Origin: an uncultured Ectothiorhodospiraceae bacterium
GTDB taxonomy: Bacteria > Pseudomonadota > Gammaproteobacteria > SZUA-152
Direction: 5' to 3'
NCBI GenBank assembly: GCA_964401355.1
Contig: CAYNYJ010000005.1
Coordinates: forward strand, 4,361-68,360
Length of the DNA stretch: 64,000 nt
Part shown: positions 31 to 50,716 of the stretch, in pieces
How the letters are laid out: the number at the start of each line of letters is the position of its first letter
Position numbering within the stretch: the stretch's first letter is position 1
The notes under the pieces: model-generated
Seen by the model: only the letters and a program-made list of their open reading frames with translations
Databases searched by the model: none
What the model was told of the DNA's origin: nothing
Program-made: the position numbers and the translations under genes

Positions 31-735
31 TCATGACATGCTGTCAAGCACACGCCGCACCAGCAACAAACCGCAGCCGAAGGCCTTGGAGCGACCTATA
101 CCATTCATCAATGCCTGTTGGAATAAATCGGCATCTTCCACAGTGAGCAACCCAGCATAGTCCAGCGTGCTGTAACGAATGGGGGTTCCTCGTGTATTTT
201 TAACAGCCCGATGCTGGTCGTAACCTTCAACACCAACGTCTCCCTTCCGAAAGGAAAAACCGTTTTTTTCGGCACGTGATTGTAACCATGCCAGCCCCGC
301 TTCTTCGATGATATTTGTCAGTGGTGTCCGTTCAGATATCGACAATTTTTTATACCCCGTGCGATGTTTGAGGTCCATCACCACATCGTGTCGATGCTGT
401 CGGCCGCTTTCATCCCGGCGCGTGACTACGGGGTTAGCCCGCAAGGTGAATGCCAAACGCTGACCCCTGAGAATAACCGGTCGATACTCTTTGGTTTCAA
501 TCTGCCAGACTCCATCGTCGTGTTGCGGCAACCGGTCGGACAACAGGTAAAAACGTGGAAAACCACCATTGGACTTTTCACGCCGAAACAGAAAGTCACG
601 TTTGGCATCGGGATCAGTTTCAAACAAGCGCCACAAATGTTGATGTTCACGATAACCGTTGGCGCACATTTCCTGCGCCAGTCGATTGGCATTGACGCTA
701 TTTGGATCAATGGATACACGACTGAAATAATTCAT
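31..735 (-). CDS. cas6e: CRISPR endoribonuclease Cas6e (CasE/Cse3), type I-E
   Basis: 234-aa ORF with motifs LWRLF..ARDFLFR, FRLRANP and C-terminal GIGRSKAFGCGLL typical of Cas6e. It is last in the cas3-cse1-cse2-cas7-cas5-cas6e order and overlaps the cas5 stop by 4 nt. Confidence 0.8.
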   Translation of the reverse strand: MNYFSRVSIDPNSVNANRLAQEMCANGYREHQHLWRLFETDPDAKRDFLFRREKSNGGFPRFYLLSDRLPQHDDGVWQIETKEYRPVILRGQRLAFTLRANPVVTRRDESGRQHRHDVVMDLKHRTGYKKLSISERTPLTNIIEEAGLAWLQSRAEKNGFSFRKGDVGVEGYDQHRAVKNTRGTPIRYSTLDYAGLLTVEDADLFQQALMNGIGRSKAFGCGLLLVRRVLDSMS

Positions 736-1469
736 CCCTGCGCCTCCGTCACGGTTTCCGAAAAATAGAATTCATCCCGTTCCGCAAACTGCCACCGCGC
801 CCGGCTCAATGACTGGTCGCGGCGCGGATACACCATGCTGGCCGACATACCTGCACTGTCATCCGTCAGTTGTTCCCAGTAGTAACCGCGTTGTGCGGTT
901 GGCTTGATCGGTAACAGCAGTTCGTCCTCGGGAAAACTAACGTCATCAAACGCCGACTTAAGACTCGTCGCATCTAACAACTGCGGACACAGCGGCAATG
1001 CCAGCGGGCAGGCTTTGCGCCCAAGATATAATTGCAATTGCGGATGCAGCAATGCCGCTTTTATATCTGTTAACGAATAAGGTGCCACATCATTTCCAAT
1101 CCACAGCGCAACCACATAACGTGCATCCATGCGGTAATCACGTGACGAAAGAATGGTGTTGAGTTCGGGGTTTCGCAATTCATCACGACGAGTAAAGAAC
1201 ACCGCCTTGCCCTTGGCTGGAGGAACTTGCGTGGTGTGGTAGTCGCGCAGCAATTCGCCCGGGGCATCGACACGCACACCGAACCCATACCCGGCAGTTA
1301 TATCGCGATGCACAGCTTCTTCATCACGGCGAATGCCTTTGGCCGCCGCCAGCAAACCTAGAATCGCAGACTTGGAGGGATGATTCGCGGTCGGGCGCTG
1401 TTCACCCACGGCCACATTTCCCCAAGAGGCCATCGGCCCGTAGAGTTGAAATAATAGAAATTGCCTCAT
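732..1469 (-). CDS. cas5: Cascade subunit Cas5e (CasD)
   Basis: The ORF track starts at 1613 and would overlap cas7. The internal Met at 1469 gives MRQFLLFQLYGPMASWG, the canonical Cas5e N-terminus, 4 nt after the cas7 stop. Confidence 0.8.
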   Translation of the reverse strand: MRQFLLFQLYGPMASWGNVAVGEQRPTANHPSKSAILGLLAAAKGIRRDEEAVHRDITAGYGFGVRVDAPGELLRDYHTTQVPPAKGKAVFFTRRDELRNPELNTILSSRDYRMDARYVVALWIGNDVAPYSLTDIKAALLHPQLQLYLGRKACPLALPLCPQLLDATSLKSAFDDVSFPEDELLLPIKPTAQRGYYWEQLTDDSAGMSASMVYPRRDQSLSRARWQFAERDEFYFSETVTEAQG

Positions 1470-1473
1470 GGCC

Positions 1474-2511
1474 CTATTCCGCTGTCGCGGCATTGATGAT
1501 ATTTGCCAGACTACCTTGACCACCTTGCACGTCCATCGTGATTCGCGCGTCCGCACAGGGACCGTAAGCGTTATCCATTTTTTCCACGGCATCTTCGAGA
1601 CTGGCGGTCGCACTGCTTAACATGTCCGTGCCTGCAATCGGTTTCAAAAAAGCAGCCGCCAACGAACGAGGTTGCTGGTTGCCAGTTTCACACAATACAT
1701 ACGAGGCACGCGCACGTGAGGCAAAACTGTTTTGTTTGCCCGTGGGTGCAACCGTCGTCGCCGCTTCAATCAATGCAGCAAGGGTTTTATTGGTCAGCTC
1801 AGCATCATCACCCAGGTTTTCTTTTAACAGCGCACGATCAATACAGATGTACTGGTAAAACAGACCCGCAGCAAATTCCGTTTCGCCCATGTGTCCCGCA
1901 CCCAGATCTTCTTCACCCGTGTTCAGGTCATCCACCGCAGTAAAAAAATCATCTTCCACCGTGACTTTGTGAACGCTGATCGCATGGGCAACCTGACAGG
2001 CGGCTTCGGTATTAAAAGCAGGGCTGGAAGCCAACATGCGACCGAACAAGGCAATATCCGCCGCGCTATGTTGCTTGCGCAGAAGTTTCAATTCATCGGC
2101 TTCCGGTTCACTACCGCGTTCGGCCAGTATCGTGATCAATTCATTAATGGCGGTTTCTTCTTCCGGGCTGAAATGGGCTAACTGTTCAATATCCACCGAA
2201 TCTTTTTTTAGCTTGCCAAACACAGCGGCAATGGACTTGGCCCAGTCGGTGGCCTTTTTTTCTGCAACGCCTTTTTCGACCAGTGATTTAAAAATTTTCT
2301 GCCCCATTGATTTAGTGCGTGTACCCACGTGGCCTTTAAGTGCATTTTCGAAAACTTCAGATTTTCGCCAGGCGCGTTTAAGACTTTGAGAGGAAACACG
2401 CAGGCGTGGCACGCCACCCATCATCGCGGTTTTAGGCCGACCCAGATCATCACGATTAAGATTAGCGGGCGGATACGAGGTCAACAAATGCAGTTGAATG
2501 AAACGACTCAT
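1474..2511 (-). CDS. cas7: Cascade backbone subunit Cas7e (CasC)
   Basis: 345 aa. The N-terminus MSRFIQLHLLTSYPPANLNRDDLGRPK is the hallmark CasC start. An AAGGAG SD lies upstream. Confidence 0.9.
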   Translation of the reverse strand: MSRFIQLHLLTSYPPANLNRDDLGRPKTAMMGGVPRLRVSSQSLKRAWRKSEVFENALKGHVGTRTKSMGQKIFKSLVEKGVAEKKATDWAKSIAAVFGKLKKDSVDIEQLAHFSPEEETAINELITILAERGSEPEADELKLLRKQHSAADIALFGRMLASSPAFNTEAACQVAHAISVHKVTVEDDFFTAVDDLNTGEEDLGAGHMGETEFAAGLFYQYICIDRALLKENLGDDAELTNKTLAALIEAATTVAPTGKQNSFASRARASYVLCETGNQQPRSLAAAFLKPIAGTDMLSSATASLEDAVEKMDNAYGPCADARITMDVQGGQGSLANIINAATAE

Positions 2512-2568
2512 GGGTATTTCTCCTTGTCAGAAAGTTATTTTATTTAGAGACTTTAAAAAACACATTAT

Positions 2569-2641
2569 CGTCATTCTGGCGTAGGCCAGAACCCAGTAGC
2601 CAGCCAATCCCCCCTGGACTCCGGCCTACGCCGGAGTGACG
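2569..2641. repeat. REP-like imperfect palindrome (cgtcattctggcgtaggcc ... ggcctacgccggagtgacg) inside the Cascade operon
   Basis: Two inverted arms of about 19 nt (17/19 matches) flank about 35 nt in the unusually long 155-bp cse2-cas7 intergenic spacer. It shares the ccggcctacgccgg core with the dispersed MITE family in this window. Confidence 0.5.
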
Positions 2642-2665
2642 AAAAAATAATCAGTTAATACTTTG

Positions 2666-3160
2666 TTAAGCAGATTTCTTTTCAGGCACATTTGGAAAGT
2701 AATCGAAGGCCCAGCGTTTTCGTTCACCATCGCCCCAGTAATAAACCGACTGAGCCAAATCAAATGGGTTCGCTTTTTTATCCATCAAACCCAATACACG
2801 AATCAATGCACCATATAAATCCCGGCGATCGCGTTGCAATAAACGGCGAAAACGTAGCTCGCTTACAACAGGCGGATCGCCTGCCATTTGCCCTGCCAGT
2901 GTCTTGCGTGAATCAAGTGTACGAACATGAGCCAGCAATCCGGCAATCGCGGCGATGCGCATTTCCCAGCCGTCCCGCTCATCTTTCATCAATGGCCGAA
3001 CACTATTACACAGGCGATGAAAGGCCGACACCATCACCACTTCATCCGGTGATTTACAGCGGCGTAACTGCGCACGTCCGCCCTTGTCTTGCTCAAGGTT
3101 TTGCCAGAATTTACTGAGTTCCTTACCTAGAGGGGAATCAGAATCAAATTTCTTGCTCAT
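2666..3160 (-). CDS. cse2: Cascade small subunit Cse2 (CasB)
   Basis: 164-aa ORF between cse1 and cas7. Size and position fit Cse2. Its 3' end overlaps the cse1 stop by 4 nt. Confidence 0.75.
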   Translation of the reverse strand: MSKKFDSDSPLGKELSKFWQNLEQDKGGRAQLRRCKSPDEVVMVSAFHRLCNSVRPLMKDERDGWEMRIAAIAGLLAHVRTLDSRKTLAGQMAGDPPVVSELRFRRLLQRDRRDLYGALIRVLGLMDKKANPFDLAQSVYYWGDGERKRWAFDYFPNVPEKKSA

Positions 3161-4761
3161 GCCGTTTTCTCCTTTTTGTCGGGTAACTGCAATAACTTTT
3201 TCATTTTTTTCGAATACAACAAATTGCGCAATTTGCGATGAGCCATAGCAATGCGGCGCGGATTTGTTACTGACACATCCCCACGCGCCGCCCAGTAGTC
3301 GAACAATGCCATCGCTGCTTTCACTAACTCGCTATGCCAGGAATTCAACACGGCAATGCCATCTCCTCCGGATTCAAGTTCATCGCGCAACTGCTGCGAA
3401 GCATGAAAGAAACTGTTTTCTGTATGCTGAAAAAAGGCCTCGATAATAAATGAGGTATCGCCTTTGGCATCACCCGGTCGCTTGAACCAGGCATCTTTCA
3501 CTGTGCTGCGCACAAACCCCGAAACCTCTATCGCCGCAGTTACCAGCGACTGCGCACGCTCGATAAAAATGGTTCGAATATTTTCGTCCAAGAAATAAAG
3601 GGGATAGGTAGTTTCGTACCAGCAACGAGCTTTCATGTTGTCCATGTCATAACCAAAGGCCCACAGTCGCAGTTGCAGTATTTTCTCTGGGTTACGTTTA
3701 TTGAAAGCGGTGATCACCCGAGCTGCATCACCTAACTCCTCATCAGCAAGAAAACGTAACCAGTGACGGTAACTCATGCCGCCCGGTTGCGGATGCCGGG
3801 GAATAGGCGTGTTGTCTTTTTTATCAAAACTATGCGGACTCAGCGGATGCTTCCACGGGCCGTTGTAATTGACACCGTAGTTTTGGGTGACGTATTGCGA
3901 CACCAGTCGGTCGCTTTCCACGCCGCAAATATCGCATTCACCCTCGCGGGCATTTTCCCAGTCCAGCCGAATCCGGCGCGGCATGGCCCAGTACATTTGC
4001 AGCGGGTTCACGTCAGCAGGGTAGGTATCTCGTCCACCGTGTTTGGAATCACTGCTACGAGTCGCCGCCATCCACGGAAAAATATCTTCGTCGGTTTGTT
4101 TGTCCGCACCATCAGTCAACGACTCGAAATCGCGGCGGCGCAGCACGTTCAGCCAGACATTGCGCCACAGGGTTTCGGGCAAGCCAGCACTATCCTGTGA
4201 GTCCACGATAGCCAAAGTCGTCAACGGCCCACCGCCCCGCAACGAAGTACGATGCCCTGCCCCGCCACTGGGGGCGTTGGTCTGCAACGTGAACAATGCG
4301 CTGGCAGCGCAAACCGGACACAACACTTCCACGCCGCCACGCTTGATAAAATGATCCGCATTATTACGCAGAGTGTTGGCACCCGGGGATTCAATTAACA
4401 GAGCATCGATAGGCTTGGTATCGCCTTGCAGTTCATCAAAATCCTGCATAAAGCGCGGGCCGTCATTGTCCAAATTAAAGGCATGTTGCAAGGGCATAAA
4501 TTTTTCTTTCAGGATATTGGGGGACGGTGCCGTTTCCAGCCAGGTTAACCAGTCTTCATTTCTTGCGTCTTCCGGCGGCATGGCCGTCTGCAACAGACCA
4601 ATGAGGAATTGCATCAGCGCGCCATTGAAATCCGCTCGCGGTGCATTCAGCGCAACGATGGGGTTATCTTCGTGGCCATCGGTTATCTGCCAGGGGGCGA
4701 TCATTTCCTTCGTCCCGCTGGCGCGACGGACTGACAACCAATTAACTGTGATTAGATCCAT
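3157..4761 (-). CDS. cse1: Cascade large subunit Cse1 (CasA/Cas8e)
   Basis: The ORF track starts at 4845. The internal Met at 4761 gives MDLITVNWLSVRR, which resembles the E. coli CasA start MNLLIDNWIPVR. About 534 aa. Confidence 0.8.
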   Translation of the reverse strand: MDLITVNWLSVRRASGTKEMIAPWQITDGHEDNPIVALNAPRADFNGALMQFLIGLLQTAMPPEDARNEDWLTWLETAPSPNILKEKFMPLQHAFNLDNDGPRFMQDFDELQGDTKPIDALLIESPGANTLRNNADHFIKRGGVEVLCPVCAASALFTLQTNAPSGGAGHRTSLRGGGPLTTLAIVDSQDSAGLPETLWRNVWLNVLRRRDFESLTDGADKQTDEDIFPWMAATRSSDSKHGGRDTYPADVNPLQMYWAMPRRIRLDWENAREGECDICGVESDRLVSQYVTQNYGVNYNGPWKHPLSPHSFDKKDNTPIPRHPQPGGMSYRHWLRFLADEELGDAARVITAFNKRNPEKILQLRLWAFGYDMDNMKARCWYETTYPLYFLDENIRTIFIERAQSLVTAAIEVSGFVRSTVKDAWFKRPGDAKGDTSFIIEAFFQHTENSFFHASQQLRDELESGGDGIAVLNSWHSELVKAAMALFDYWAARGDVSVTNPRRIAMAHRKLRNLLYSKKMKKLLQLPDKKEKTA

Positions 4762-4939
4762 CTGTCTTTTCTCCCTGCGCTTGATATATGGGATCGTTAA
4801 CTGCCTCCGTAGCCTGCCATTCAAGCACAATAAAAGTACCGTCATCTAATTCGACCCGCCCCAAACTTCCCCTGCGCCGCATTTCTAAAATCAGCTGCTC
4901 AGGGCGTGATAAAAAATGGGTTGCCAATATTTCTAACAT
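4742..4939 (-). CDS. hypothetical 65-aa protein, first cistron of the Cascade operon; candidate CreT-like toxin or unknown small Cas-associated protein
   Basis: ATG preceded by a perfect AGGAGG SD with 5-nt spacing. The ORF overlaps the cse1 start codon by 20 nt, an arrangement consistent with translational coupling. I recognise no family. It lies directly downstream of the psi-spacer target site. Confidence 0.45.
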   Translation of the reverse strand: MLEILATHFLSRPEQLILEMRRRGSLGRVELDDGTFIVLEWQATEAVNDPIYQAQGEKTDGSNHS

Positions 4940-4998
4940 TACCGCCTCCTAATTCCACGATCATCCAGATGCCGCCACAGGGGTGAAACAATAATTGC

Positions 4999-5023
4999 AA
5001 GTATATATGGAAATATTTTTGAA
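4999..5023 (+). promoter_or_regulatory. AAG PAM (4999-5001) plus 22-nt partial protospacer matching the psi-spacer; putative Cascade operator over the small-ORF/Cascade promoter
   Basis: Target aag|tatatatggaaatatttttgaa versus psi-spacer tatatatggaagtatttggaac. The 11 PAM-proximal nt match exactly, and 17 of 22 match overall. It abuts a candidate extended -10 (TGcAATTAT, minus strand, 4991-4999) for the small ORF. Confidence 0.45.
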
Positions 5024-5042: not shown

Positions 5043-5051
5043 TGTTAAAAT
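5043..5051 (+). promoter_or_regulatory. candidate extended -10 (TGtTAAAAT) for the creR/creA-like RNA
   Basis: A TGnTAAAAT motif lies 4 nt upstream of psi-repeat 1, so a transcript would start at or just before the mini-array. Called from sequence only. Confidence 0.3.
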
Positions 5052-5054
5052 TTT

Positions 5055-5134
5055 AACTTCCCCTTCGAGAAGGGGATGAACCATATATATGGAAGTATTT
5101 GGAACCCGTTCCCCACACCCGTGGGGTTTGTACA
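5055..5134 (+). ncRNA. CRISPR-like mini-array psiR1-psiS-psiR2 (creA/creR-like crRNA-resembling RNA)
   Basis: psiR1 (5055-5083) AACTTCCCCTTCGAGAAGGGGATGAACCA versus the I-E consensus GAGTTCCCCGCGCCAGCGGGGATAAACCG. The TTCCCC/GGGG stem and the AT(G/A)AACC 5'-handle are conserved. The psi-spacer is 22 nt (5084-5105). psiR2 (5106-5134) CCGTTCCCCACACCCGTGGGGTTTGTACA keeps the hairpin with a degenerate 3' end. Its orientation matches the transcribed sense of I-E repeats. Confidence 0.5.
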
Positions 5135-5152
5135 GGGGCTAACGCCCCTGTA
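5131..5152 (+). terminator. perfect 9-bp-stem hairpin tacaggggc-taac-gcccctgta spanning the cas3 stop codon
   Basis: A palindrome followed by CTTCTTCTTCTTCC on the plus strand. It may terminate the creR-like RNA. The cas3 stop codon (cta, 5139-5141) sits in the loop. Confidence 0.3.
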
Positions 5153-7922
5153 CTTCTTCTTCTTCCTTCATCAAACCTATTTCCGGGCTGTAATAAAATG
5201 CCATCGTTGCACCGTCCTTGCTGAGCGCCATTCCTTTCCACAAACCATCGTCAACGGCCACCAATGGCAACAACACTCCCCACTTGCCTTTGGCGGGTAG
5301 CCGTTCGCGGCAGGTTTCGATTATCTCGGCAGTGATATTTTCAGTGGCTGCCTCACTGGCGATCAGGTCGCACCGCATTTGCACGGCGCTACGTGGCCAG
5401 GCGTGATCAATTTCGTTGATCCAGGGTTCCAGGTTTTTTCCATTCCAGCGGGCAAGATAGACGGTGGTGGTTTCCACTTCGGCGAGTCGGGTCGGTGTCT
5501 TTGTCTCATCCCACCAGCGGTTTTCATCTTCGCCGTTATAGCCGTCTGCAATATTCAGCGTGTTGAGTGCGCCCAAACTGCCACTGGCACTGGCGCGTCC
5601 TTCTGCTTCCATTGAGGCTGCATCCAGGGCCGGTGGATATTCTGTGCAGGCGTAGACGCCTTCGATCAAGCGACGGGCATCGTCGGGCATGCGGAAACCG
5701 CCGCGTTTTTTAAGCAGATGGGCAGTGCGCCAAATTTGCCCATGATGGGGGTAAACATAACTGGTGCCCTTTAAATAATCCTTGAACCAATTGGCGCTGA
5801 CATCACCGCCCGGGTCGGGGCCATTGACGACCAGCACGGGCTCGCCGCGCTCACCACGCTGATGACGGTGCAAACGCCCGGCACGCTGGATGATAAGGTC
5901 GACGGGTGCGAGGTCGGTGATCAGCAAATCAAAATCGAGATCCAGGGATTGCTCTACGACCTGGGTGGCGATGAGTACCTGTCCCCGGCGCTCGTCAGCG
6001 GTACTTTTCGGGCCGAAACGTTTGACGATGCGATTTTCAATATCCAGCCGATCCTGCATGGCGTAGCGGGCATGGAACAAATCAATAGGCCAATCCGGGT
6101 GCTGGGCGCGCAAATGGTCGAAGGATTCACGGGCATCGCCAACAGTATTGCGTATCCAGCAGGCGCACTGCCCGGTATTAACAGCAGCTACCAACCGATT
6201 TTCGACATCCGCAAGCCCATGCACCATTTCCACTCTGACTTTACGACGCACACTGTCACGGGTGGCCACTGTTGTTTCATCAAGATTTTCTGAATGCACA
6301 CGGGTGAACAGTGGATAGTCATCTTCACCCGTTTTGTTCAATTCTCGATTAGCCCAGCCTGCTCCCTTGGCAAAGGCATTGACCAGCTGTTGGCGTTGTT
6401 TGGTGGGCAAGGTTGCGGAAAGTAGAATGGCACTGCCGCCACTGGCGGCATGGGCTTGCAACAGATCGCGCAACAGGCGATTCATGTAGTCATCACAGGC
6501 ATGGACTTCATCCACCACCAATAACTTACCGAGCAAACCCAACAAGCGAAGAGACTGATGGCGCGACGGCAATATGGCCATCAACGCCTGATCAATAGTG
6601 CCCACACCGACTTCCGCCAGCAGTGCCTTCTTTCGGTTATCCGCCAGCCAAGCACCGCAATGACTGCCTGCGGTTTCGGTGTTGTCGCCATAGTCTGATT
6701 TCTCAGTTGTTGTGATGGCGGTTACCGACGACATAATCGCTTGTCGGAAATTTGCCGAAAGATCGCGTGCTCCGTGAGCCAGTACCAACGAAGGTTTAAT
6801 GTCTCCCTGAAATAAACGTTGATAAACTTTGGCCATGCGGTCATACATGGCATTGGCAGTGGCCATGGTGGGCAACCCAAAATAGAAGCCCTGTGAATTC
6901 CCGGCCGCCATCATGCGATGCACCAGCATCAGCGCCGCCTCGGTCTTTCCTGCGCCGGTCACGTCTTCGAGGATAAATAACTGCGGGCCTGCTGGCAGAG
7001 GTAGCTGTTCACAATAGGCTTGCAAAGGTGTCGGCGTGAATATTGAAGTTGCTGTTGGTGAAAATAGGTCTTGAAAACTCATGCTACCGGCAACTTGTGA
7101 TGGCAAAAGCTCTGTGGCGGAAATAGCAGTCTCTGCGCGTGAAAGGGCTATTTGCCAATAATCAGGAAGCGATTGTGTACTGTCTGTAAAGGGAAAATAA
7201 TCGGTATTGGAACCCAGCCAATCACACAACACTGCAAATCCGGCCAGCCACCAAGACGCCGTCTGGCTTATCTCAAGAGCGGGTTGTGGAAATGGCGTTG
7301 CGGGCGGCAAAAGCAAGCTCGCAACATCGGCAACAAATTCACGAGCAGCGTCAACATCCTGGGGCTCGAAATAATCACGGCACATTCCTTCCGGTTTGGG
7401 TGGCACACCGTGATGACCAATCATGGCCTGCATCCAGTATTCCAGGCCTGTGGGCAGATTGCCGGTAAGCAAACCACCCGACCTTTGTTTTGACAATAAA
7501 CCCAGCTGACGAAAGCGCTTACGTAGATGATCTTGCCAAAGCATGAATCCCAGATTGTCATGTCGCGGAGAATCACTGCATGCCCGGTCTCGTTGTTGCA
7601 ACGCCCCAAACAGATCAGGCCGAAGGTTTTGAAAACTGGCAGAAAATTTTCCAATGTCATGTAAAGTTAAGAAAAAGGGCAACCAGTCTAAAAGCTCCAC
7701 CGCCTCCAGCCCTGTCAATCGCACCAAGGACTCGCGCAAGTGGTGGTGCCTTCTCAACAACACGACCCCAACCGCCGCCACATCCAAGCAGTGAAACGGC
7801 AACAGATGATAAGGGGCACCGTCTTCATCCGTCTTCCGGGCCTTGCCCCAATAACGAAAATAACGGGCCTTTTTGTCGGTAGCTGTATTTGCGGGAACGT
7901 CCATATTCCTTTGTTTTAACAT
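5139..7922 (-). CDS. cas3: Cas3 HD nuclease/helicase, type I-E
   Basis: 927 aa with an N-terminal HD domain (LHDIGKFSASFQ) and a Walker A motif (GAGKTEAAL). Confidence 0.9.
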   Translation of the reverse strand: MLKQRNMDVPANTATDKKARYFRYWGKARKTDEDGAPYHLLPFHCLDVAAVGVVLLRRHHHLRESLVRLTGLEAVELLDWLPFFLTLHDIGKFSASFQNLRPDLFGALQQRDRACSDSPRHDNLGFMLWQDHLRKRFRQLGLLSKQRSGGLLTGNLPTGLEYWMQAMIGHHGVPPKPEGMCRDYFEPQDVDAAREFVADVASLLLPPATPFPQPALEISQTASWWLAGFAVLCDWLGSNTDYFPFTDSTQSLPDYWQIALSRAETAISATELLPSQVAGSMSFQDLFSPTATSIFTPTPLQAYCEQLPLPAGPQLFILEDVTGAGKTEAALMLVHRMMAAGNSQGFYFGLPTMATANAMYDRMAKVYQRLFQGDIKPSLVLAHGARDLSANFRQAIMSSVTAITTTEKSDYGDNTETAGSHCGAWLADNRKKALLAEVGVGTIDQALMAILPSRHQSLRLLGLLGKLLVVDEVHACDDYMNRLLRDLLQAHAASGGSAILLSATLPTKQRQQLVNAFAKGAGWANRELNKTGEDDYPLFTRVHSENLDETTVATRDSVRRKVRVEMVHGLADVENRLVAAVNTGQCACWIRNTVGDARESFDHLRAQHPDWPIDLFHARYAMQDRLDIENRIVKRFGPKSTADERRGQVLIATQVVEQSLDLDFDLLITDLAPVDLIIQRAGRLHRHQRGERGEPVLVVNGPDPGGDVSANWFKDYLKGTSYVYPHHGQIWRTAHLLKKRGGFRMPDDARRLIEGVYACTEYPPALDAASMEAEGRASASGSLGALNTLNIADGYNGEDENRWWDETKTPTRLAEVETTTVYLARWNGKNLEPWINEIDHAWPRSAVQMRCDLIASEAATENITAEIIETCRERLPAKGKWGVLLPLVAVDDGLWKGMALSKDGATMAFYYSPEIGLMKEEEEVQGR

Positions 7923-29539: not shown

Positions 29540-29734
29540 TAACGCACAACATCATTTGACGCATCGACAAGAGCAGCCATTGACCCGCCCCCGGACGTGA
29601 ATAACGCACAAGCAGTGAACAACACCCTCGGTCAGAAGGCTGAATGGGTTATTGATCAACAAGACTCCTTGTTTATTACCGTCATTCTGCGCAGTACACC
29701 ACTCCCCTGATTGCCCTGGAGTGATTCCCAAGTG

Positions 29735-30007
29735 CCCTTGAGTCATTTCTTAGTGCCCCGGAACGATTTCTTAGTGCCCTTAGGTCATTTCTTAGTCACC
29801 TTGAGCCATTTCTTAGTGCCCTTAGGTCATTTCTTAGTCACCTGGAACGATTTCTTAGTGTCCTTAGATCATTTTTTAGTGACCTGGAATGATTTCTTAG
29901 TGCCCTTAGGTCATTTTTTAGTGACCTGGAACAATTTCTTAATGCCCCTGGGTCATTTCCCAACCACACAGAACGATTTCCGAGTGCCCCTGAACCCTTT
30001 CCGAACC
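29735..30007. repeat. 13 x 21-bp tandem repeat (conserved core ATTTCTTAGTG plus 10-nt variable half) with an alternating 42-bp higher-order period
   Basis: The units are contiguous with no spacers. Two variable-half classes (cccttaggtc and acctggaacg) alternate, producing recurring AGGTCA-N8-TGACCT palindromes. Confidence 0.8.
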
Positions 30008-50417: not shown

Positions 50418-50500
50418 GCAGGAACAGGGTTTAAACCTGTGACCTTACAGCGGTTACGCCTAAAAAGCCAAGCCTGAACCTCAGACACTCCACACATACC
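50418..50500 (-). pseudogene. decayed tRNA-fMet copy 1 (3'-half remnant TAAGGTCACAGGTTTAAACCCTGTTCCTGC)
   Basis: A diverged T-arm/acceptor remnant and a degenerate 5' half. No CCA end and no acceptor pairing. Confidence 0.5.
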
Positions 50501-50525
50501 ATTCTCTACAAAACCAGTATTCGGT

Positions 50526-50613
50526 TGGTAGCGGGGACAGGATTTGAACCTGTGACCTTCAGCGGCTGCGCCGGTAAAAGCCGAGCCCGACCCTCGGGCG
50601 CTCCACACATACC
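50526..50613 (-). pseudogene. decayed tRNA-fMet copy 2 (intact 35-nt 3' half, mutated 5' half)
   Basis: The 3' half GAAGGTCACAGGTTCAAATCCTGTCCCCGCTACCA is identical to the functional gene. The 5' half retains only GTGGAGC and TCGGGCTC islands, and the acceptor stem is lost. Confidence 0.55.
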
Positions 50614-50639
50614 ATTTCTCTACAAAACCAGTATTCGGT

Positions 50640-50716
<77 letters not shown>

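Follow-up and report, generated by a model that had tools for sequence, protein, structure and literature searches.

We analyzed a 64,000-nt stretch of DNA (hereafter the window) from an uncultured Ectothiorhodospiraceae bacterium, contig CAYNYJ010000005.1, which carries a type I-E CRISPR-Cas locus reading leftwards. A 65-codon open reading frame (ORF), here called ORF65, lies between cas3 and cse1 of this locus and is very probably a translated gene. Its product is predicted to be an acidic soluble protein with a core of ~45 residues, a Phd/YefM-like beta-alpha-alpha-beta-beta(-alpha) fold and a short disordered tail. Our favored but tentative interpretation is that ORF65 may be the protein cargo of a guard module of the CreTA/CrePA type, harmful or growth-arresting if overproduced and fused to the autoregulation of Cascade. 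This kind of system is already known, as a translated I-E toxin and the I-F toxin CreP have been published, and the protein family and its fold are new for it.

The coding sequence of ORF65 was examined on the minus strand. The frame starts with ATG at 4939-4937 and ends with TAA at 4744-4742. The sequence around the start is GGAATTAGGAGGCGGTAATGTTAGAA, in which CGGTA forms the 5-nt spacer between the Shine-Dalgarno (SD) sequence and the ATG, and an SD motif of the (A/G)GGAG type was present at the matching position in all loci of the family. An earlier interpretation made from the letters of the window (the sequence-only reading) had described the 65-codon frame, the AGGAGG-5 nt-ATG arrangement, its translation and a stop codon at 4742-4744 beyond the cse1 ATG, all of which were correct on re-reading. 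The same interpretation called the frame unannotated, which does not hold everywhere: records of NCBI, JGI and ENA contain a gene call, though no name, for the identical protein. The cse1 ATG (4761-4759) and the ORF65 stop are separated by 14 nt. ORF65 and cse1 overlapped by 8-23 nt in 9 of 11 loci, and a gap was found instead in the loci L092 and L003 (labels such as L001 denote other genomic loci compared, and labels such as P0016 denote representatives of protein clusters). The start of cse1 was assigned to ATG 4761 because the alignments to Pfam CRISPR_Cse1 and TIGR02547 both place model position 1 at residue 2 of the protein starting there. An in-frame ATG upstream (4845) was dropped as the cse1 start on the model alignment and the N-termini of relatives; it merely lengthens the mechanical ORF.

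Homologues of ORF65 were collected by a word-indexed search of 5.8 billion proteins, by profile iterations and by scanning 1.84 billion representatives exhaustively with HMMER. The family comprised 13 clusters, all of 54-66 aa, and four further metagenome loci with relatives were found, no more. Contexts were read for the window, L002, L003, L081, L084-L088, L089 and L090-L095, and every readable one showed the order cas3, intergenic region, ORF, cse1. Homologous small ORFs at the cas3-cse1 junction, accompanied by the mini-array described below, were what the sequence-only reading had proposed to look for; the homologues sat at this junction in every context examined, and the mini-array accompanied ORF65 wherever the upstream region was present. 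Large repetitive proteins (P0008, P0010 and others) returned by the representative search were rejected as sums of weak beta-hairpin repeats with unrelated Pfam content. Searches of phage and plasmid collections (tblastn) gave no relatives or chance matches only, a scan of IMG/VR gave none, and no paralogue was present within the 64-kb window.

The sense frame of ORF65 was open in all 11 homologous loci. In the alignment of intergenic regions, ORF65 was free of gaps over 54 codons, while the adjoining 5′ untranslated region (UTR) was unalignable and rich in indels. Conservation of the promoter alone, which the sequence-only reading had considered as a sign against a gene, was therefore not what we observed: conservation covers the protein and does not extend to the 5′ UTR. 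The in-frame ratio of nonsynonymous to synonymous differences (pN/pS) in pairwise comparisons was 0.16-0.43 among closer members and 0.56 against L089, whose protein is 30% identical, and the two shifted sense frames gave ~0.6-2.7. Differences at codon positions 1/2/3 numbered 39/35/93 over five phylogenetically independent pairs (chi-square p = 6.5e-9). The conserved part is codons 1-54; the C-terminal tail varies, with low model confidence. Moreover, L092 (with a gap of 71 nt) and L003 (187 nt, after an insertion) have no overlap with cse1 and still keep the core intact, indicating that selection acts on the protein and not on coupling alone.

The intergenic region upstream of ORF65 contained a mini-array of two degenerate I-E repeats around a spacer-like sequence, on the plus strand at 5055-5129, opposite to the cas genes and conserved in 9 loci. 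The bona fide I-E repeat GTGTTCCCCACGCATGTGGGGATGAACCG of the related locus L060 was used as reference; pseudo-repeat 1 retains GGGGATGAACC and pseudo-repeat 2 retains GTTCCCCAC...GTGGGG of this repeat type. Rfam detected no CRISPR repeat and no other credible family in the intergenic region. The sequence-only reading had noticed a seed-matched site flanked by a protospacer-adjacent motif (PAM) upstream of ORF65, and this site was recovered: an AAG PAM, 59 nt upstream of the ORF65 ATG, is followed by a target identical to the pseudo-spacer at 16 of 17 positions, with the mismatch at position 12 (0.01 such matches expected by chance). The target was unique in the window, and the PAM was invariant across the homologous loci. 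In most family loci the mismatches between pseudo-spacer and target fell at positions 6, 12 and 18, which are flipped out and not read by the I-E Cascade. Position 2 covaried between pseudo-spacer and target across loci (T/T or C/C). At the level of sequence comparison, the mismatch pattern and the covariation give strong support to a mini-array RNA that would guide Cascade to the target site. In L089, whose family member is represented by P0016, the pseudo-spacer differed, and a cognate target flanked by AAG was present for it.

The promoter elements around the target were compared among the same loci. A -35-like TTGnnn abutted the PAM in all loci, and a promoter of the form TTGnnn-17 nt-TAnnnT was found there in 10 of 11. 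Because its -10 ends 29-43 nt upstream of the ATG, ORF65 is probably the first cistron of the target-controlled transcript. The overlap of ORF65 with cse1 and the -35/-10 pair at the PAM in 10 of 11 loci would fit control of the Cascade promoter by the target. The window itself lacks this -10: a 7-nt deletion in the 4955-4995 region (minus strand) removes the TAnnnT hexamer present in 10 relatives. Two independent metagenome assemblies (L082 and L083) are identical across the deletion, so it is not an assembly error. A sigma-70 scan gave no promoter in this region of the window, and a separate motif scan detected the syntenic promoter in the relatives only. On the plus strand, the extended -10-like element TGTTAAAAT, part of the conserved alignment block AATTTTAACA, is a putative promoter element of the mini-array. 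A palindrome GTTAAAATTTTAAC was also considered as an operator and was rejected, since one half alone is conserved and a -10 of the mini-array fits better. The minus strand has no T-run after the hairpin at the cas3 stop, and read-through from cas3 is therefore possible. The same GTAC-containing hairpin was rejected as a YefM-type operator; two loci with ORF65, L089 and L090, do not conserve it, and a terminator of the mini-array fits better.

The ORF65 protein was compared with sequence and structure libraries. No Pfam family was matched at E<=10 by any of 9 family members, NCBIfam and PADLOC gave no match to ORF65, and a sequence-profile search of the PDB gave nothing significant. PHROGs returned only a weak 'endolysin' match (E 0.06-0.15), which was not credited. 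The family members were computed to be soluble and acidic to neutral (isoelectric point, pI, 4.7-6.8), with no hydrophobic segment. The AlphaFold2 model of ORF65, built from 7 sequences, showed beta1-alpha1-alpha2-beta2-beta3-alpha3 with a predicted local distance difference test (pLDDT) score of ~90 over residues 1-40; the final ~10 residues were disordered, and the core is followed by a variable tail of 10-20 residues whose pLDDT is <50. The same core was obtained when P0016, 30% identical, was modelled from 13 sequences. The top structural matches in three libraries were the DNA-binding domains of Phd/YefM antitoxins; the first ~30 Foldseek matches in the PDB were Phd, YefM or related antitoxins (E 0.01-0.3), and the top BFVD matches were cyanophage PhD/YefM antitoxins. 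The Phd/YefM fold is a dimeric DNA-binding module. Comparison by hhalign with a verified YefM/Phd alignment gave a probability of 0.55%, though the equivalent alpha2-beta2-beta3 segment was aligned. Because this result was not significant, only likeness at the level of the fold is claimed.

We then surveyed the slot between cas3 and cse1 in 80 related I-E loci, where the junction was measurable in 73. In ~31 of these, cas3 overlapped cse1 or ended within 20 nt of it, in line with the view of the sequence-only reading that no gene separates cas3 from cse1 in canonical I-E loci; in ~20, however, a gap of 260-460 nt was present, so the rule is not general. Published surveys report gaps of >200 bp in ~20% of I-E loci (10.1101/2023.03.03.530964). 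ORF65 was absent from 78 of the 80 loci, including the closest Cascade operon, L001 (Cse1 81% identical), which has no intergenic region at all. L028 (Cse1 76% identical), like numerous more distant loci, has an unrelated small ORF in the slot, in its case a hydrophobic mini-ORF. This mini-ORF belongs to a family of single-helix proteins of 35-45 aa (MPxLLE, ~14 hydrophobic residues, TKxxSxxIDFKDK) encoded just upstream of or overlapping cse1, with MPGLLEVIVCVFVGVGAFVVTKIQAVKIDFKDKDDN as an example; judged from sequence, they look like small membrane toxins in the position of ORF65. Other, unrelated small ORFs that end at the start of cse1 were exemplified by MSIFIRIALKLKQWLSFEMEFSR, MGLKSFLKKCCIGIAICKGK/MIIKAYFKKFLFGFAVFKR and MDTLLTLLEIINGLSPSPGALIALALTTTIVMVIKWPGGK. 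Mini-arrays were found upstream of the sister mini-ORFs in L012, L013, L041, L046 and L078, with a candidate target in all but L012. In L041, L046 and L078 the AAG-flanked target pairs had mismatches at positions 6 and 12, together with 9 in L041 and 15-16 in L046. The cas3-cse1 slot is therefore a place where small protein genes dock recurrently and exchangeably, and ORF65 is one occupant. The most useful by-product of this analysis is the set of unrelated mini-ORFs that sister I-E loci carry there.

Some loci carrying ORF65 relatives had further features. In L003, ~190 nt were inserted between the ORF and cse1 (2808-2994); the old cse1 start ATGGATAATTTGATTTT remains and there is a new GTG start. 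The insert carries repeat-like hairpins, TTCCCATGCTCCGCGTGGGAAT and TTCCCACGCAGGAGCGTGCGGAAC, and resembles a small mobile or repeat element. L095 has two genes with no Pfam match (143 and 149 aa; 2513-3393) between cse2 and cas7 of its ORF65-type operon. In L092, a gene with a WYL/WCX domain (38-1048) lies directly upstream of cas3 and is a candidate extra regulator of that CRISPR locus.

If ORF65 is the cargo of a guard module, the system would work as follows. The crRNA-like (CRISPR RNA-like) RNA of the mini-array, of the CreA/CreR type, would load Cascade, and the complex would bind the AAG-flanked site; cleavage is not expected because the match covers only 16 of 17 nt, with mismatches at the flipped-out positions of Cascade. 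Binding would block the adjoining -35, and ORF65, as first cistron of the Cascade operon, would be repressed together with the Cascade genes; a transcript shared with cse1 is suggested because the two genes overlap. When Cascade is titrated by crRNAs, mutated or blocked by anti-CRISPR (Acr) proteins, ORF65 would be derepressed. A guard role is preferred because the genes studied in this slot are deleterious when derepressed, because the slot is variable and dispensable, and because the gene looks acquired. ORF65 had a GC content of 0.45, and of 0.41 at third codon positions (GC3), against 0.49-0.55 in the cas genes, and the lower value is consistent with acquired cargo.

The closest precedent is the I-E locus of Citrobacter rodentium, in which the cas3-casA spacer holds an opposite-strand creA, a PAM-flanked promoter target and a 96-bp ORF with a strong ribosome-binding site (RBS); this ORF is toxic only if translated and makes the Cascade genes conditionally essential (PMC12055562). 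The ORF65 locus shares with it the subtype, the slot, the opposite-strand crRNA-like gene, the PAM-flanked partial target and the small ORF with a strong RBS, and, as judged from the sequence, its architecture is that of C. rodentium in every testable respect. The proteins differ. The C. rodentium ORF has 31 codons, is experimentally toxic and has no homology to annotated sequences according to its authors (PMC12055562), whereas ORF65 has 65 codons, is unrelated to it, is predicted to be soluble and folded like Phd/YefM, and overlaps cse1. In CrePA of the I-F system of Acinetobacter baylyi, CreP, a 103-aa toxin of phage origin with a KilAC domain, is encoded between cas3 and csy1, downstream of a CreA target (10.1101/2024.01.05.574328). 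With both toxins published, the interpretation of the sequence-only reading, partly supported here, is less new than it implied. A mini-array, a PAM-flanked target and a small ORF in the cas3-cas8 spacer are common to both loci, as is the restriction of homologues to the slot; unlike CreP, ORF65 has no KilAC or other Pfam match, no credited PHROG match and no viral relatives.

The RNA part of the locus also has known counterparts. CreR of the Salmonella enterica I-E system autorepresses Cascade by RNA and was described as standalone, with no coupled gene (10.1101/2023.03.10.532045). Shmakov et al. reported I-E mini-arrays whose transcription runs against that of cas3 and whose promoter targets are flanked by AAG, as well as cargo genes elsewhere (10.1101/2023.03.03.530964). 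These resemble the mini-array of the window in the two degenerate repeats placed between cas3 and casA, the orientation opposite to cas3, the handle of pseudo-repeat 1, the hairpin of pseudo-repeat 2, the AAG PAM and ~15-17 nt of complementarity at the casA promoter, which in the window is a putative one. The ORF65 locus differs from CreR in having a conserved protein gene between target and casA. Cargo supervised by CRISPR is known as CRISIS defence systems in I-C (10.1101/2024.12.27.630466) and as toxin-antitoxin cargo in I-D (10.1101/2023.03.03.530964). Both, like ORF65, are non-cas genes between cas3 and the effector genes under a crRNA-like RNA; they are multi-gene defence or complete toxin-antitoxin systems, whereas ORF65 is a single 65-aa gene.

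On the other hand, several observations weigh against a harmful product. We infer the toxin role, one of the two offered by the sequence-only reading, from the architecture of the locus, whereas the protein is acidic and soluble with an antitoxin-type fold; this predicted fold and the acidic charge (pI 4.7) are like those of antitoxins and regulators and unlike any known toxin. Moreover, ORF65 apparently shares a transcript with Cascade, and its SD is stronger than that of cse1. Production of Cascade would thus always entail production of ORF65, which sits uneasily with a potent toxin. Finally, the -10 is deleted in this genome, and ORF65 and Cascade may here be expressed from a weak promoter or through transcription that continues out of cas3.

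These points favor a benign role, which is nearly as likely as the guard role although still doubtful in itself. ORF65 would then be a non-toxic, dimeric DNA-binding regulator of the Phd/YefM type, supervised by Cascade, whose level reports the occupancy of Cascade; the cas or mini-array promoters would receive a second feedback from it, or its targets would be genes elsewhere. The Phd/YefM domains at the top of three structure libraries, the same core in the model of the 30%-identical member, and a pI and size like those of YefM and Phd all agree with this, and co-translation with Cascade would be natural for such a role. No partner toxin was found among the neighboring genes (cas3 and cse1, with the oligoribonuclease (RNase T) and RsgA genes upstream of cas3), and the window holds no paralogue of ORF65. 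However, there was no sequence-level homology to Phd/YefM, and the aligned intergenic regions showed no conserved operator-like dyad outside the blocks of the mini-array, target, promoter and SD. Close relatives with no ORF65 or with unrelated hydrophobic peptides would be unusual for a dedicated regulator, and all experimentally studied genes in the slot are toxic (PMC12055562; 10.1101/2024.01.05.574328). Compared with the type II antitoxins themselves (PF02604; PDB 2a6q, 3hs2, 4zlx and 6jqy), ORF65 is similar in its predicted core, in the size of the N-terminal domain and in its acidic pI; it differs in having no profile similarity, no C-terminal toxin-binding extension and no adjacent toxin of the YoeB or Doc type, and in its cas-operon context.

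A more specific form of this idea, somewhat unlikely in our estimate, is that ORF65 acts as a non-toxic, dimeric DNA-binding relay with an antitoxin fold under crRNA-like control, turning the occupancy of Cascade into a second transcriptional output that would switch other genes, or the mini-array and cas promoters, upon inhibition of Cascade. If so, type I-E systems would have a new level of regulation, and together with the unrelated hydrophobic mini-ORFs of sister loci ORF65 would show that small effector genes of diverse kinds generally dock in the cas3-cas8e slot.

The position of ORF65 at the cse1 start could also mean that it is a mere upstream ORF, which opens the mRNA and delivers ribosomes to a weakly initiated cse1 while its peptide has no function. 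The overlap in 9 of 11 loci, the cse1 SD within the last ORF65 codons and the variable C-terminal tail are in accordance with this, but purifying selection on the amino acids of codons 1-54 and the confident compact fold predicted for them are not. In L092 and L003 the core persists across gaps where coupling is impossible, and many I-E loci translate cse1 with no such ORF; we therefore regard this explanation as improbable. An accessory protein that binds Cas proteins rather than DNA, for instance one that helps assembly, inhibits self-targeting or serves as an anti-CRISPR decoy, has equally poor prospects. ORF65 lies in the operon, is translationally linked to Cse1 and confined to I-E loci, and shares its small size and acidity with many Cas-binding proteins. 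However, the most similar Cascade operons (L001 and L028) do without it, so that Cascade does not need it, and the top structure matches included no known Cas or Acr protein. For the same reason, a new Cascade subunit, one form that the new Cascade-operon protein proposed in the alternative by the sequence-only reading could take, is unlikely, with L001 having no module and L028 an unrelated mini-ORF. Least probable is that ORF65 is not a gene, being a conserved non-coding leader of the Cascade mRNA or the shadow of a real antisense ORF at 4788-4952 (plus strand): this antisense frame, which shares wobble positions, is the single other frame with equally low pN/pS and is open for 54 codons in the window, thus mimicking coding conservation, but it was rejected as a gene because it has internal stops in 8 of 11 loci where the sense frame is always open, and a leader is at odds with the substitution periodicity, the conserved SD and ATG and a gap-free ORF65 beside an unalignable true 5′ UTR.

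Guard genes repressed by CRISPR account for the resistance of CRISPR-Cas loci to loss and to anti-CRISPRs. Protein examples are few, namely CreP in I-F and the one 31-codon I-E ORF of C. rodentium, and most I-E mini-arrays have been classed as standalone CreR. To these, ORF65 would add a protein family that is conserved and predicted to fold, unexpectedly in the manner of an antitoxin, and that is fused directly to the autoregulation of Cascade. Three or four unrelated families of small ORFs, if not more, occupy the same place in the related I-E loci and are candidates for the missing partners of I-E mini-arrays, and mini-ORFs preceded by an SD between a PAM-flanked target and cas8e offer a way to more candidates. 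The positions of all features are collected in Table 1.

Table 1. Features of the ORF65 locus and of the cas3-cse1 slot in related loci. Positions refer to the window unless a locus label is given.
Feature	Position	Strand	Remarks
ORF65 coding sequence, 65 aa + TAA	4742..4939	minus	used for translation, family alignments, selection tests and structure models
SD AGGAGG of ORF65	4945..4950	minus	5 nt 5′ of ATG
Overlap of ORF65 3′ end and cse1 5′ end	4742..4761	minus	20 nt, different frames
cse1 ribosome-binding site AGGGAG	4771..4776	minus	within last ORF65 codons, 9 nt 5′ of cse1 ATG
-35-like TTGCAA	4995..5000	minus	adjoins PAM
Pseudo-spacer target, protospacer TATATATGGAAATATTT	4999..5023	+	PAM AAG at 4999-5001, then protospacer
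Extended -10-like element TGTTAAAAT	5043..5051	+	in conserved block AATTTTAACA, just upstream of mini-array
Pseudo-repeat 1 AACTTCCCCTTCGAGAAGGGGATGAACCA	5055..5083	+	I-E hairpin and 5′-handle-like ATGAACC kept
Pseudo-spacer (~22 nt) TATATATGGAAGTATTTGGAAC	5084..5105	+	
Pseudo-repeat 2 CCGTTCCCCACACCCGTGGGGTTT	5106..5129	+	5′ part of repeat and hairpin kept, 3′ part degenerate
Hairpin GTACAGGGGC-TAAC-GCCCCTGTAC plus TTCTTCTTCT	5130..5163	+	with T-rich tail, terminator-like for mini-array transcript; includes cas3 stop codon
cas3, 927 aa	5139..7922	minus	upstream neighbor of ORF65
cse1/casA, 534 aa	3157..4761	minus	next gene of Cascade operon
cse2	2666-3160		after cse1 in Cascade operon
cas7	1474-2511		after cse2
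cas5	732-1613		after cas7
cas6e	31-735		after cas5
Hydrophobic single-helix mini-ORFs	L012 2407-2529; L013 ~2846-2956; L007 2880-3017; L009 2883-3002; L014 ~2889-3020; L028 2895-3002		
Possible relatives of these	L022 543-665; L023 2871-2993; L039 ~2798-2995		
Second small-ORF type	L019 ~2904-3017; L024 ~2897-2989; L067 ~2898-3017		ends at cse1 start
Third small-ORF type	L041 2808-2993; L046 2777-2977		
Another small ORF	L078 ~2877-2999		at cse1 start

Elsewhere in the window, two repeat arrays were observed. At 50424-50674, a 114-nt unit is repeated 2.2 times and starts with ACAGGATTTGAACCTGTGACC, which is like the 3′ half of a tRNA; it may be an integration-site duplication. A separate tandem array of 21/42/84 nt is located at 29712-29989.

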